Source: Myxococcota bacterium (GTDB taxonomy: Bacteria; Myxococcota; SpSt-1050). Taken from it: 14,858 nucleotides of DNA. The translations under genes and the position numbers were made by a program. Location of the stretch: NCBI GenBank assembly GCA_049969675.1, contig JBMFOP010000075.1, forward strand, positions 1-14,858, in the 5' to 3' direction. The notes under the pieces are model-generated. The model ran no database searches. It was given only the letters and a program-made list of their open reading frames with translations, and was not told the DNA's origin. Positions 150-13,515 of the stretch are shown here, in pieces. Each line of letters starts with the position of its first letter. Position 1 is the stretch's first letter.

Positions 150-278
150 TCAAGAGATAAATCCCTTTATTCCTCTCCCTTCCCCTCTCTTTGCCTTATA
201 AAATATATTCTTAGAAATCTGTAGAATTTGCTTACGCCAATCATAGATTTGTCCAGAGATAATGATATATTTACTCAT
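150..278 (-). other. Short 42-aa ORF with strong Shine-Dalgarno (small protein or 5' end of a decayed gene)
   Basis: On the minus strand AAGGAGG (285-291) lies 6 nt before ATG at 278. Translation MSKYIIISGQIYDWRKQILQISKNIFYKAKRGEGRGIKGFIS ends at TGA 152-150. No recognisable domain. Confidence 0.3.
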
Positions 279-615: not shown

Positions 616-2016
616 ATGAATAGATTTAAGTTTGCAATTTTTATACTACCCTTAATAACAACCTCATTTACATATGCAGGTGAACTCCCCTCGTTGATAG
701 TATTTAATATGGGTGCTGAGGAGGGAGTTACAAAGGGAAAGGCAAATATGCTGACAGAGATATTGATTGATGAGATAAATAAACTCAATCAATTTAAGGT
801 AATAGGTCAGAAAGATCTGGATTCAATGTTCTTCTGGGAGCAGAATAAGCAACTCAAGAATTGCACAGAGTCCTCCTGTCTCTCAGAAATTGCCGGTGCT
901 ATGGGGGCAGAATACTATGTAGAGGGGTCGGTTGGTCAATTGGGAGATAGGTATATTATTGCTGTAAAGTTGATTAATGCTCATAAGGTTGAGATAGTTA
1001 ATAGATTGATAAGGAAGGTATATAAGAGTGATAATGCCCTTGTAGATGAGGTCCCAAAGATGGTAAAAGAGCTCTTTGACCCTAAAAAATTGAAGATGGA
1101 ATTTGATTCGGTTCAGGGTGAGATATCTTTTACCTCCGGCCTTGATATAGTAAGTGAGCCATCTGGTGTAAAGATAATTATTGACAATGAAGATAAAGGG
1201 GTAACCCCAATTAAGATTGAAAAACTTAGAAACGGTAGACATACTATTATTGCAAAGAAAGATGGATACAAAGATGAGACAGTTAATGTAAATCTCAATA
1301 AGGATGAGATAAAGCCGTTGATGATTAAGCTAAAAAAGAGGGTATGTTCAATATATGTTGAGACCTCACCGGTGAGTGCTGATGTATATTTTCAGGGGAA
1401 AAAATACTATACCCCAGCAAGGATTGAGAATGTGACTCCGGGAAAGTATGAATTAAAATTCTTCAATAAGAAATATGGTGAGAGAAGGATGGATGTGGTT
1501 GTTTCTGATAATGAAGAGGAGACAAAGGTGATGCTTGATTTTGAGGCTACTACGATAGAGGCTGTAAAAAAATATAAAAAAGATATTGGTTCCGGATATT
1601 TTACAAATGATTTATTTTATAGTTTTGGGGGCTCATATTTTGGAGATAGTGAAAAATCCACAGCTCATACATTTCAGGTAAGGAGCAAACTTTCTCTCTT
1701 CCCTGTGCTGCTTATCCCTGAGGCACAGGTGTTTGTCACAAATACAAAATATTTTGGGGCAAACCTATCACTTGTCCTGTTCAGCACCCAGCAATTTGAA
1801 TTGTTAACTCTCGGTTATGGATTTGTTAAGAGTAATATGGGGAACGGAGCGGGGTTGGCATTAAATCTTTATAGAATGAATGTGGCATTACATACTGTTA
1901 CCTCAAATAATGACATGCATCTGTTTATCGGCTTTTTAGATGCCTACATAGGTAAAGATAACTATGTAATAAATTTGATATCATTGGGACTTGGGTGGGG
2001 ATTTTATATGTATTGA
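616..2016 (+). CDS. Secreted/outer-membrane PEGA-domain protein with N-terminal CsgG/FlgO/TolB_N-like domain
   Basis: Signal peptide (MNRFKFAIFIL...TYA). Motif CTESSCLSEIAGAMGAEYYVEGSVGQLG. Two PEGA repeats (IVSEPSGVKIIIDN..GVTP...GRHTIIAKKDGY; VETSPVSADVYF...PGKYEL). Amphipathic beta-strand C-terminus ending LGLGWGFYMY. Confidence 0.8.
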   Translation: MNRFKFAIFILPLITTSFTYAGELPSLIVFNMGAEEGVTKGKANMLTEILIDEINKLNQFKVIGQKDLDSMFFWEQNKQLKNCTESSCLSEIAGAMGAEYYVEGSVGQLGDRYIIAVKLINAHKVEIVNRLIRKVYKSDNALVDEVPKMVKELFDPKKLKMEFDSVQGEISFTSGLDIVSEPSGVKIIIDNEDKGVTPIKIEKLRNGRHTIIAKKDGYKDETVNVNLNKDEIKPLMIKLKKRVCSIYVETSPVSADVYFQGKKYYTPARIENVTPGKYELKFFNKKYGERRMDVVVSDNEEETKVMLDFEATTIEAVKKYKKDIGSGYFTNDLFYSFGGSYFGDSEKSTAHTFQVRSKLSLFPVLLIPEAQVFVTNTKYFGANLSLVLFSTQQFELLTLGYGFVKSNMGNGAGLALNLYRMNVALHTVTSNNDMHLFIGFLDAYIGKDNYVINLISLGLGWGFYMY

Positions 2017-2023
2017 GGTGTCT

Positions 2024-2839
2024 ATGGAGAGTATTGCCTTCTATGGCAAAGGTGGAATTGGTAAATCGTTTATTTCGGCAAATATAAGTTACTATCTGGC
2101 AAAGAAGAAGAAGAGGGTCTTACATATTGGTTGTGACCCAAAGCATGACAGTACTTTTTTATTGCTTAATGATAATAAGCGAGCCTCAACTGTGCTGGAT
2201 ATGATAGGTGATAATGTGACTATGATAGATGCGTCAAAAATCATTAATACGGGAAAACTCGGAATAAATTGTGTTGAGGCAGGGGGACCGCCGCCCGGTG
2301 TAGGTTGTGCGGGCAGGGGAGTGGCGAGGACACTTGAATTCCTTGAGGAGAGCAGGGTAATTGATTCAAAGAGATATGATGTAGTAATCTATGATGTTCT
2401 GGGAGATGTGGTATGTGGTGGGTTCGCCGCGCCTTTGAGACTCGGCTTTGCAAAGAAGGTTGTGATTGTTACCTCAGAGGAGGGTATGTCTTTATATGCA
2501 GCCAATAATATTACAAAGGCTATCAATACATATTTTGAGAATGGAATCTATCTTGCTGGTCTGATTGTAAATCTTAAGAGAAATGATGCCGATATAGATA
2601 TTCTGAAAAATTTTGCAAAAAGGATCAATTCAGAGATACTCGGATTTATAAAGAGGTCAAACCTTGTGTCTGAGGCAGAAAGGGAGAGAAAGACATTGAT
2701 TGAAAGATTTCCCGATTCTTCTGAGTCTAAAATGATAGCCAGGATAGCCGAAGACCTTTATAAACACAGAGGTAAGTATGAGCGCCCGCGCCCGATGGAG
2801 GATGAGGAGTTCTTTGAATTCATAAAGAAGGGTAGGTAG
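2024..2839 (+). CDS. Nitrogenase iron-protein-like ATPase/reductase (NifH/BchL/BchX/CfbC superfamily), function unknown
   Basis: YGKGGIGKS P-loop, GCDPKHDST, EAGGPPPGVGCAGRG, YDVLGDVVCGGFAAP (both [4Fe-4S] Cys ligands) and LYAANNI. Start revised to ATG 2024 behind GAGGTG (2015-2020), giving 271 aa. Confidence 0.92.
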   Translation: MESIAFYGKGGIGKSFISANISYYLAKKKKRVLHIGCDPKHDSTFLLLNDNKRASTVLDMIGDNVTMIDASKIINTGKLGINCVEAGGPPPGVGCAGRGVARTLEFLEESRVIDSKRYDVVIYDVLGDVVCGGFAAPLRLGFAKKVVIVTSEEGMSLYAANNITKAINTYFENGIYLAGLIVNLKRNDADIDILKNFAKRINSEILGFIKRSNLVSEAERERKTLIERFPDSSESKMIARIAEDLYKHRGKYERPRPMEDEEFFEFIKKGR

Positions 2840-2840
2840 C

Positions 2841-5195
2841 TCAACTGGTTGTAATCAATTCAACATCACACTCTCTCTTCTTCAGGAGTTCCCTTAGATT
2901 TAAATGTCCCGGTTGCAATAGTTCGGGGTCTTCCTTGAGGATTTTAATTGCTGCCTCTCTTGTCTCTTCAAGTATATCTGCATCACGGATGAGGTTGCTC
3001 ATATGCAGGTCTGGAAGTCCGGATTGTCTGGTCCCTGCCAGCTCGCCGGGCCCGCGAATCCTCAGGTCCTCCTCTGCTATCTTAAATCCGTTATTGGTCT
3101 TCTCCATAATCTTAAGCCTTTCATAGGCATTTTCGGTGAGCCAGTTGTAGGCTATCAGATAGCAGAACGAGGTCTTCGTCCCCCTTCCAACTCTCCCCCG
3201 AAGTTGATGTAATTGGGAGAGTCCGAATCTCTCTGCATGTTCAATTACCATAATGGAGGCATTCGGGACATCTACCCCTACCTCAATGACAGTGGTTGCA
3301 ATCAAAATCTGTAACTTCCCTTCTTTGAATTCATTCATTATTCTAATCTTCTCATCATCTGAAATCCTACCGTGTATAAGTCCTATCGGTATCTCTCTGA
3401 ATTGGGTCTCTTTGAGATGCTGGTACATATCTTCTGCCGCTTTTAAGTCCAGTTTGTCGCTCTCTGAGATGAGTGGATATACAATATAACACTGCTGATT
3501 CTCTTGAGTAATCTGTCTTTTGAGGTCAATATAAAATCTCTCAGCCTTATCTCCTCTGATGACCTTTGTGATTACCTCCTTTCTACCTGGTGGGAGCTCT
3601 TTAATCAGACTTATATCCAGATCTCCGTATAGTGAAATTGCAAGGGTTCTTGGAATCGGTGTGGCGCTCATCATCAGAAGGTCGGCATTTATCCCTTTGG
3701 ATTTCATCTTTGCTCTCTGATTTATTCCAAACTGATGCTGTTCATCAATGATTACATAAGTAAGATTCTTGAACTGGATATTCTCCTCAAGCAGGGCGTG
3801 AGTGCCAATAATTATTTTTATATGACCCAGAGAGATGTCGCCAACAATTCTACTTCTCTCAGCACCTTTGATTGAACCAGTCAATAATCCTATTCGGCTT
3901 TTGATGTCTGGTAGTAGTTTACAAAAATTATTATAGTGTTGTCGTGCTAATATCTCAGTAGGAACAAGGATGGCAGTCTGTGAACCAGATAGAGCAGCCA
4001 GATAAGAAGTAATCATTGCTACAGCAGTCTTTCCAGACCCCACATCACCTATCAATAGTCTGTTCATCTGCTTATCGCTCTTCATATCCCTGATAATCTC
4101 TTGCAATGACTGATTTTGTGATCTGGTAAGTTCAAATGGGAGTTTCTTTATTGCATCCGCAACAGTAGATTCTTTAATATTATGTGTAAAGCCCATCTGT
4201 CTCTTATATCTCTCCTTCCTCATCACAAGGAGCATTTCAAGGGCAAATAGTTCATCAAATATCAGTCTCCTTCTCGGTCTCCATCTGTTGGATTGAATCT
4301 CCTCAAAATCGGTGTTGTTGGATGGGAAATGTATCTCTCTAATTGCCAGATTTAGCGGTATAAGATTATATCTCTGTATGAGGTAATCCGGAAGCGGGTC
4401 TATAATATAATTTGAAAATTCATCCACAATAGTCTTCATAATCTTGATTAGGTGTCCTTCAGATATCCCTTCAATGGCTGAATATACAGGGATGATTCTC
4501 TTAAAAAAGAGGTCATCTTCTATATTCCCAGTCTCTTTAATGATAGGATGATTTATCTGAATATTCCTTTTAAACATTCTCGCCTTACCACTTACTATTA
4601 CGGTAGTGTTGGGTTTATATTTATTGATAAGATGCTCCTCATAGTGTGGCTGTATATGAAACCATACAAGGTCCAGAAATCCGCTCGTATCGGATATAGT
4701 CATTGTAAAAGTCTTTCTGGTTTTGCCAGAGCGTATCACTTTTCCGACCACAGTTACATTCTCTCCGGGGACGATTCTATTTATTGGAATAATTGCCCTC
4801 CTGTCTTCATAATCCCGTGGAAAGAAGAAGAGGGCGTCCCTGATTGTGTTTATGCCCTTTCTCCTGAATCGTTCAAAGAGTACAGGCCCAACACCTTTTA
4901 TATACTGGATTGGTTTATTGAGTGTCTCTTCTGCATAAAATGTATTACCCGCTGATTGAATATTCTCTCTTTTACCATCTGTCTTAATAACCTCACTCTC
5001 AAGTAGTATCTTAAATAATCTTAGAGAGAGCTCATTGCAATTGATTGTGGTCTGATACAGGTCTTCAAAGAATCCTTTCTTCTCTGGAAATTCAATCTTT
5101 AATCTTTTTATCTCCTCTCTGATAGTTGATATATCTACCTGAGACTCCGCAAGATTCAGCAGGATACCGAGTCTTTCATTGTAAAGATTTTTCAT
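2841..5195 (-). CDS. recG: ATP-dependent DNA helicase RecG
   Basis: IKGVGP, FPRDYEDRR wedge/OB region, GDVGSGKT, PTEILARQH, DEQH, MSATPIPRTL, ATTVIEVGVDVPNA, QLHQLRGRVGRG, DLRIRGPGE. Confidence 0.97.
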   Translation of the reverse strand: MKNLYNERLGILLNLAESQVDISTIREEIKRLKIEFPEKKGFFEDLYQTTINCNELSLRLFKILLESEVIKTDGKRENIQSAGNTFYAEETLNKPIQYIKGVGPVLFERFRRKGINTIRDALFFFPRDYEDRRAIIPINRIVPGENVTVVGKVIRSGKTRKTFTMTISDTSGFLDLVWFHIQPHYEEHLINKYKPNTTVIVSGKARMFKRNIQINHPIIKETGNIEDDLFFKRIIPVYSAIEGISEGHLIKIMKTIVDEFSNYIIDPLPDYLIQRYNLIPLNLAIREIHFPSNNTDFEEIQSNRWRPRRRLIFDELFALEMLLVMRKERYKRQMGFTHNIKESTVADAIKKLPFELTRSQNQSLQEIIRDMKSDKQMNRLLIGDVGSGKTAVAMITSYLAALSGSQTAILVPTEILARQHYNNFCKLLPDIKSRIGLLTGSIKGAERSRIVGDISLGHIKIIIGTHALLEENIQFKNLTYVIIDEQHQFGINQRAKMKSKGINADLLMMSATPIPRTLAISLYGDLDISLIKELPPGRKEVITKVIRGDKAERFYIDLKRQITQENQQCYIVYPLISESDKLDLKAAEDMYQHLKETQFREIPIGLIHGRISDDEKIRIMNEFKEGKLQILIATTVIEVGVDVPNASIMVIEHAERFGLSQLHQLRGRVGRGTKTSFCYLIAYNWLTENAYERLKIMEKTNNGFKIAEEDLRIRGPGELAGTRQSGLPDLHMSNLIRDADILEETREAAIKILKEDPELLQPGHLNLRELLKKRECDVELITTS

Positions 5196-5410
5196 TTATT
5201 TTTTTTATTGATACGATTATTTATTGCTGTAAGCAATTCCTTTAAGGAGACATTGTGCATCTCTGCGGCATCCTCAATAGTTGAGGTGGGTGCGAGTACA
5301 CACTCATTACAGGGCATCCCGAAACTCTCCAGAACTTCGCAGACTTCAGGGTACTGTCTTATCAACTCATCAATCAATATATCTTTGTGAATAATCTCTC
5401 TCTTCTTCAT
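5192..5410 (-). CDS. DUF1858 / hybrid-cluster-associated redox-disulfide domain small protein
   Basis: IHKDILIDELIRQYPEVCEVLESFGMPCNEC...TIEDAAEMHNVSLKELLTAIN (CxxC). Its TGA overlaps the recG ATG (ATGA). Confidence 0.85.
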   Translation of the reverse strand: MKKREIIHKDILIDELIRQYPEVCEVLESFGMPCNECVLAPTSTIEDAAEMHNVSLKELLTAINNRINKKNK

Positions 5411-12699: not shown

Positions 12700-12752
12700 A
12701 CCAGTTATTAGAAAAAAACTTTATATAATCCCCAATCTTTAGACTCTTTAAT

Positions 12753-12950
12753 CATAACTTTTACGCAAAATGCGCGGAAAATTTTTTATGTATTTTGGTT
12801 ATGGCTATGCCGAATTAGGACTATATTCAGACAAAAGACCATTTTTAATCAGGAAGTGATAAATTTTGTAATAATACACCAGGGAAAGATAATTGATAAA
12901 CATCCAGCCTTCAAATGAATAGCAATTCCTCCTATAAATTCTATCAGACT
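12753..12950 (-). mobile_element. Relic of a DDE transposase C-terminus (IS1634/IS4-superfamily-like) with possible terminal repeat
   Basis: Fragment SDRIYRRNCYSFEGWMFINYLSLVYYYKIYHFLIKNGLLSEYSP resembles the C-terminal 'D..Y.....GWMFIN..AL..YY.IY..L....LL..YSP' segment of such transposases (recalled, not searched). CATAACTTTTACGCAAAATGCGCGGAA (12753-12779) may be the end. Confidence 0.6.
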
Positions 12951-13023
12951 CACTGTTATCCAAAATAGATCTGATTTGAGAAGTTAACACCGCTGTCCAG
13001 AATAATCTTATTTGAAAAGTTAA
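12951..13023 (-). repeat. Head-to-tail tandem (37+36 bp) of the type-1 dispersed repeat
   Basis: CACTGTTATCCAAAATAGATCTGATTTGAGAAGTTAA and CACCGCTGTCCAGAATAATCTTATTTGAAAAGTTAA are 30/37 identical. Both match the reverse complement of 380-412. Confidence 0.8.
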
Positions 13024-13515
13024 CTATTTGTAAAATAAGAATTTTTGGCGGGTAAACCCATATTTTCAAAATCAGGTTATCCCAATTCTCTTTTGGGAAA
13101 TTTGAGTTAATCATTACACACCCATATTTGCATTACTTGTTTGAGTAATGATGCAGGAACAGATTCTTTTGCCGTGCAGAAATATATAGTTTTAAATAAA
13201 CTTACAGAGAAGAGATAGACTATAGTCCCATTAGAACAAGGTGGGTTTTTGTACTAAACATTGATATAATAAAACTTCTATTACTAAAATTTTGGAGTGT
13301 TACGGATTAGAATTTTTCTGTTACAGAAAATGTGTCAGTTTTCTTTGGGTTACGAGTAGAAAGTGGGGTGGAGTGCATTTTAATGGATGTTTATATTTGG
13401 GTGAAATATTTGAGATTCAAATGATGATAGAATTTGGGTAATATATAACTGGCGTGTTGGCATATAATAAGGATAGGTAGCAAAATGCTGGATAAGGATT
13501 TATAATAAGTGAATA

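Follow-up and report, generated by a model that had tools for sequence, protein, structure and literature searches.

The window, meaning the whole 14,858-nucleotide stretch of DNA analysed here, is an entire contig (C75) of a 3.05-Mb genome that is 99.9% complete. Two genes on the forward strand follow each other closely in it, and a third converges on them:

616..2016, forward strand: PEGA-domain gene (466 aa; TGA stop at 2014-2016; Pfam PEGA E 1e-18, in two stretches)
2015..2020, forward strand: GAGGTG, a Shine-Dalgarno-like site for the NflH gene that shares bases with the TGA of the PEGA gene
2024..2839, forward strand: NifH-like gene, assigned below to Group VI as NflH (ATG at 2024, TAG to 2839; 271 aa; PF00142 281.6 bits)
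2841..5195, reverse strand: recG, convergent housekeeping neighbour (TIGR00643 730 bits, cut-off 659)

An earlier sequence-only reading had described a nitrogenase-type Fe protein translationally coupled to a PEGA protein. The features on which it relied, namely the 7-nt gap between the two genes, the overlap of GAGGTG with the TGA and the head-on recG, were all confirmed in the sequence, with the recG stop codon (2841-2843) lying 1 nt from the end of the NifH-like gene. A TTG at 1991 was considered as an alternative start of the NifH-like gene and rejected: it would place the start inside the PEGA gene, and the homologues begin at ATG 2024 or close to it. Both junctions are ordinary in their tightness, because small gaps are common genome-wide: according to a rough ORF caller, 638 of 1,599 same-strand neighbouring pairs lie no more than 7 nt apart, 203 of the 1,599 combine a gap of 3-12 nt with a Shine-Dalgarno-like motif, and 54 of 223 convergent pairs are at most 1 nt apart. 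Across the four genomes of the source genus the gap between the PEGA gene and the NifH-like gene (hereafter H) measures 7, 7, 9 and 11 nt. GAGGT, the core of the motif, occurs in all four and overlaps the PEGA stop in three, the exception being G003, where TAA is followed by tc and then GAGGT, giving an 11-nt gap without overlap. A scan for promoters and terminators returned 12 promoter-like sites against 10.3 expected by chance, and no Rfam match was found.

Elsewhere in the window, a 72-aa DUF1858 gene (5192-5410, reverse strand) overlaps the start of recG and is kept at 69-71% identity in three genus genomes. A 42-codon ORF with a strong ribosome-binding site (150-278, reverse strand) is divergent from the PEGA gene and is possibly a gene remnant; a purD block takes the place of this side of the PEGA gene in G001 and G002. 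About 800 bp of AT-rich sequence (12700-13515) contains no ORF of 80 aa and has no Rfam match.

The product of H carries a Walker A motif (GKGGIGKS, residues 8-15), switch I D38, Cys95 (in GCAGR), Arg98, switch II D124 and Cys131. Cys95 and Cys131 are invariant in 34/34 alignment rows and match the equivalents of Cys97/Cys132 and the GXGXXG motif of Group VI. Compared with the three genus orthologues, its uncorrected pN is 0.13-0.16 and its pS 0.72-0.80, which shows purifying selection on the gene. The protein falls below all NCBIfam cut-offs, that is, those for CfbC (Group IV-B; NF033200, 294.9 versus 402 bits), nifH (TIGR01287, 293.9 versus 394.35 bits), BchL (200 versus 345 bits) and BchX (167 versus 331 bits). 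In a 48-row tree, which holds neither a Group III row nor a labelled MarH row, it lies in a starred 20-row clade (95/97) together with the Elusimicrobia-named P0083 and with H proteins linked to NifD/NifK-like (D/K) genes, while CfbC (three matches over the CfbC cut-off), BchL, BchX and NifH I/II form separate starred groups. AU tests reject its union with CfbC (p 5e-7) and with NifH I/II (p 1e-56) and leave sisterhood with the long-branched BchL (p 0.22) or BchX (p 0.15) unrejected. Identity with MarH (Group IV-C) is argued against by the missing nifB-type gene: nifB was found in 0/4 genus genomes, and the control G033 was positive.

This clade matches the Group VI nitrogenase-like systems named in 2020, a label that rests on one database-named Elusimicrobia anchor (P0083) together with matching features and stands apart from the reference set of the original paper. 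The proposal of an undescribed system thus gives way to one already named (10.1101/765248; PMC13474568, as far as the accessible text of both goes). The placement does lie outside NifH I/II, CfbC, BchL and BchX, and the clade is still uncharacterised. With regard to the earlier suggestion that an undescribed system would be refuted by nesting in a characterised clade with distant partner genes and by a PEGA linkage kept in no relative, what was found is mixed: the partners lie elsewhere in the genome and the clade has a name, but none of its members has been characterised and every close relative retains the PEGA linkage.

Several related loci were seen in passing. One (L010:7211-11819), in a Methanosarcinales archaeon record, belongs to the same clade and joins its genes in the order D-K-H-radical-SAM. 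A search of 25 relatives at E <=1e-40 found no NifH-type gene, and the unit reflects either transfer or mis-binning. Another (L118:7078-8916, in G268) is a 613-aa ORF with two tandem NifH-like domains, both long-branched. NifH-NifD-like fusions of ~710-790 aa occur in Anaerovoracaceae, Methanomassiliicoccales and Fibrobacter records (L011, L013, L014) and fall outside the NflH clade.

The gene had been called an orphan, and a non-N2-fixing paralogue with a distantly encoded D/K-like partner had been proposed. The first holds for the window, where no nifDK, bch, cfbD, radical-SAM or tetrapyrrole gene is present among the 12 ORFs scanned, but not for the genome, in which a search for Oxidored_nitro (PF00148) found one NifD/K-like pair on contig C1:

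C1:66570-68378: NflD-like gene (602 aa; PF00148)
C1:68320-69699: NflK-like gene (459 aa; PF00148)

The pair lies at least 42 kb from either contig end, and the genome has one full-length PF00142 gene to go with it. Each of the three genus relatives likewise has one D/K pair, on another contig than H, and D/K are intact in 4/4 genus genomes. Cys186 and Cys267 of D are invariant in 18/18 D rows and Cys53 of K in 18/18 K rows; the P-cluster cysteine set is absent, and the three invariant cysteines are within the at most four of six seen in Group VI. From this pattern we infer a simple cluster on D/K, rather than a P-cluster or FeMo-cofactor.

The partners also track H in occurrence and in phylogeny, which bears out the idea of a distant partner. 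Among 301 genomes of the phylum (>=85% complete), the clade's H is found in 19 and an orthologue of the C1 K gene in exactly the same 19, counts that are not independent and overstate independence, as the 19 genomes represent only 5 families, with 12 in one. Outside the genus, no more than 500 bp separate H from D or K in 14/15 genomes, the fifteenth being a 3-kb contig that ends in H. The nearest non-genus H proteins (G025, G149 and G119; 50-52% identity) go with the nearest D (32-33%) and K (34-35%), and G004, of the same order as the source genome, is below these three in all proteins (H 45, D 24, K 31%); the identities do not follow host kinship. They do covary (Spearman 0.72 and 0.69; 105 pairs from 15 genomes, not independent of each other, leaving out G003, G006 and G032, which did not pass an extraction filter, and G065 and G085, in whose locus D is missing). 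We are highly confident that the gene at 2024-2839 encodes the NflH of the C1 D/K pair.

The N-terminal domain of D gave weak hhalign matches to radical-SAM extensions (E 0.003, probability 10%, and 0.011); six other such comparisons had E >=0.19, no hmmsearch match fell under E 0.25, and no usable Atlas feature match was found (best TM 0.47). This domain is tandemly duplicated in G149 (L105) and G119 (L106), and in G119 two D/K sets flank one H.

Further candidates for the system come from the neighbours of H in relatives, which are HxsB/HxsC-like enzymes and the His-Xaa-Ser precursor itself. Their orthologues in the source genome are dispersed and include C16:22388 (53-62% identity where adjacent to H), C132:2718, C74:7837, C74:10146, C20:34654, C61:15110, C31:30089 and C43:17091; H, D/K and the radical-SAM partners together are spread over at least six contigs amid housekeeping genes, with no radical-SAM gene near H in the window. 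The source genome exceeds the cut-offs for HxsA4 (69.6 versus 55 bits), HxsB (537.9 versus 370 bits) and HxsD (56.6 versus 50 bits). Among the 35 proteins scanned, none reached the HxsC4 cut-off of 500 bits (best 186 and 182 bits), and the other enzymes are HxsC/HxsC4-like but below cut-off. Its HxsA4 precursor has 15 uninterrupted repeats ending in Trp. The density of PF04055 radical-SAM domains is very high, at 62 matches (61 over cut-off) in 3.05 Mb, with some genes holding two domains.

Orthologues of C16:22388, an HxsC-like radical-SAM enzyme, are present in 19/19 genomes with H versus 9/282 others, and all nine of the latter have HxsA4 over cut-off. HxsA4 itself exceeds its cut-off in 16/19 genomes with H versus 11/282 others; counting two that fall below cut-off but are clear, a (His-x-Ser)n precursor is seen in 18/19, and in the remaining genome, G070, none was found. 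In 9/15 non-genus genomes HxsA4 is on the contig of H within 40 kb. The H genomes are nested within those with the type-4 pathway. A PF00148 gene is missing in 3/5 checked HxsA4 genomes without the clade's H, and the D/K reductase looks optional because type-4 systems occur without any D/K. No link between Group VI and His-Xaa-Ser peptides was found in the accessible literature text.

Most HxsA4 leaders (L148-L166) have TRRD followed by a hydrophobic stretch, which looks Tat-like; those of the source genus and of G004 have TRG, though TatC is present. G004, a same-order genome, keeps an intact cluster (L053; G004:C59:8000-27000) with HxsB, HxsA4, four PF00148 genes and H. Among the matches seen outside the genus, none comes closer than its HxsB (60%) and its C16-type enzyme (66%), but its H, D and K do not rank first, and the kit of the source genus may be a mosaic.

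Taken together, these findings suggest that NflH is the ATP-driven electron donor of a Group VI reductase, pairing in trans with the NflD/NflK-like proteins of C1. By analogy with the family, two NflH subunits would bind one [4Fe-4S] cluster through Cys95 and Cys131; hydrolysis of MgATP by this homodimer would drive low-potential electrons, one at a time, to a simple cluster that D (Cys186, Cys267) and K (Cys53) would share at their interface. Occurrence and linkage point to D/K as an optional reductive tailoring step of the type-4 His-Xaa-Ser pathway, the parts of which, likewise scattered over the chromosome, would be the precursor HxsA4, HxsB, HxsD and several HxsC-like radical-SAM enzymes. 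The PEGA gene would be the neighbour behind which H landed when an ancestral cluster broke up, and H probably uses its promoter. We put the probability of this whole account (NflH, the C1 D/K pair, a bystander PEGA gene and a peptide pathway) at roughly 0.6. A more specific claim is put forward tentatively, at a little under even odds: NflHDK may be the first case of a nitrogenase-fold enzyme that reduces a ribosomal peptide, namely a radical-SAM-modified (His-Gly/Ala-Ser)n-Trp product that is perhaps an exported anti-phage effector.

The same H and D/K enzyme might instead reduce a tetrapyrrole or another small cofactor, with the His-Xaa-Ser genes as co-inherited neighbours or downstream users. 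The two-plus-one cysteine pattern would suit a simple cluster as in DPOR and COR, going by what is known of the family, and sisterhood with BchL or BchX is left unrejected by the AU tests; B12-type radical-SAM genes are present as well, so that a ring might conceivably be salvaged. A tetrapyrrole is, moreover, the published proposal for Group VI, and peptides go unmentioned in the accessible text of the sources (10.1101/765248; PMC13474568). On the other hand, hemB and hemC were found in 0/4 genus genomes, while G025, the positive control, has both. Their absence favours a peptide over the published substrate, but it only weakens the latter, as rings can be salvaged. HxsB/HxsC-like enzymes and the precursor adjoin H in relatives, and the H genomes lie within the type-4 set, which also speaks against a tetrapyrrole. 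We regard this alternative as unlikely, yet deserving of real weight, and a peptide substrate as favoured by the gene content.

The place of the PEGA protein in the reductase account calls for separate consideration. It is probably exported, given a likely Sec signal peptide at ~aa 1-22 (recognized by eye); an N-terminal domain resembling CsgG/LpoB is combined with two PEGA domains and a likely outer-membrane beta-barrel at the C-terminus, with Atlas feature matches of 0.93 to CsgG/PEGA and 0.92 to outer-membrane beta-barrel/PEGA. Its AlphaFold model (pLDDT 37.5) was too weak for use and was left out of the fold search; residues 310-466 gave 9 clusters. PEGA-H is a fixed genus-level adjacency, joined in 3/3 genus genomes and in 5/5 metagenome loci at >=79% identity, and co-transcription of the two genes is plausible. 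Conservation ends at the genus: the PEGA gene is near H in 0/15 non-genus H loci, and it is missing from the archaeon-labelled locus and from a metagenome H locus at 48% identity. Full-length PEGA orthologues occur in 4/301 phylum genomes, all of the source genus; some match to the protein is found in 202/301, those listed from outside the genus spanning mainly common N-terminal or PEGA domains.

One could suppose that this genus has drawn the PEGA protein into the pathway, with a role such as exporting or anchoring the mature peptide, and that this role would explain a co-expression with NflH. Besides the adjacency itself, the genes upstream of PEGA vary among close relatives while PEGA-H stays joined, which counts against a bystander. 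Many HxsA4 leaders carry the presumably Tat-like stretch, and the canonical HxsA effector is periplasmic (PMC13128918). Against recruitment stand the 15 non-genus H loci without PEGA, the tight gaps that are the norm in this genome, and the synteny beyond the pair: recG holds the same position in 3/3 genus genomes, and synteny equal to that of PEGA extends to another four to five genes. Other parts of the system also have neighbours that are unrelated and yet just as constant throughout the genus: D/K close a series of PilZ, MEMO, DnaJ, CapA and DUF374 genes, the C16 radical-SAM gene is flanked by genes for a TPR protein and a LigD phosphoesterase, and the HxsB-A4 core likewise has unrelated genes beside it. 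Since recG and the genes beyond it are as fixed as PEGA, and since the unrelated genes beside the other parts are too, we consider the PEGA gene a bystander with good confidence and its recruitment improbable. One break-up of the cluster in the ancestor of the genus is the simplest reading.

A stand-alone Fe-S redox-sensing ATPase, acting on envelope function without D/K, had also been suggested. The separation of H from D/K in 4/4 genus genomes would fit such a sensor, but D/K are intact in all four and would be left without an Fe protein if H did not serve them, the identities of H, D and K covary (Spearman 0.72 and 0.69; 105 non-independent pairs), no signal peptide or membrane segment was found in NflH while the PEGA protein is likely exported, and PEGA is full-length only in the genus, all of which makes this repurposing very unlikely. 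Nitrogen fixation, F430 synthesis or (bacterio)chlorophyll synthesis has a negligible chance: CfbC and nifH give the top profile scores and nitrogenase iron proteins the top solved-structure matches, but every score is far below cut-off, the AU tests reject CfbC and NifH I/II, nifB, hemB and hemC are absent from the genus genomes, and D/K are without the P-cluster cysteine set.

The reductase account matters in several respects. The genus provides a natural control, in which the break-up of the cluster has cost neither H and D/K nor the precursor and the radical-SAM partners, and hemB/hemC are missing; this retained kit names a concrete candidate substrate for Group VI. If the account is true, all parts of the kit persist as dispersed single-copy core genes in a genus that makes no tetrapyrroles, which offers a minimal set of one H, one D and one K for reconstitution. 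The PEGA adjacency serves as a caution that a tight, genus-wide junction need not imply common function.

Among the known nitrogenase-fold reductases, DPOR (BchL/N/B), COR (BchX/Y/Z) and CfbC/D use an Fe-protein dimer and ATP to supply electrons to a simple cluster carried by a partner of the nitrogenase fold. The predicted working mode of NflHDK would be alike, going by the family; unlike these enzymes, NflH stands in a separate clade and scores below their cut-offs, and its genus is without the tetrapyrrole pathway. On the peptide side, the HXS anti-phage system comprises HxsD-HxsB-HxsC-HxsA, and the word "nitrogenase" occurs 0 times in the accessible text of the HXS paper (PMC13128918). As in this system and the NCBIfam type-4 set (HxsA4 NF038313, HxsC4 NF038332), the source genome has a His-x-Ser repeat precursor, HxsB and HxsD. 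It differs in the several HxsC-like paralogues, none over cut-off, in the dispersal of the genes, in the added nitrogenase-like module, and in a precursor of 15 uninterrupted repeats ending in Trp.

The closest likeness is to Group VI itself. Meheust et al. described its NflH/NflD/NflK from Elusimicrobia and fourteen Myxococcales genomes, with 0 to 13 radical-SAM copies nearby (10.1101/765248), and the group was reviewed in 2026 by North and Shafaat, according to whom, in the accessible text, it has no characterised member and gene context is of little help on the substrate (PMC13474568). Shared with it are the Walker A motif and two cluster cysteines in H, highly divergent D/K with few cluster cysteines, the lack of nifB, the many radical-SAM genes, and the taxa concerned, Elusimicrobia and Myxococcales. 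Unlike the reported systems, as far as their accessible descriptions go, the source genome has H, D/K and radical-SAM partners split over at least six contigs, and its genus is without hemB/hemC. The source genome adds a further representative to a kind that is named but uncharacterised, with its genes split up in an unusual way.
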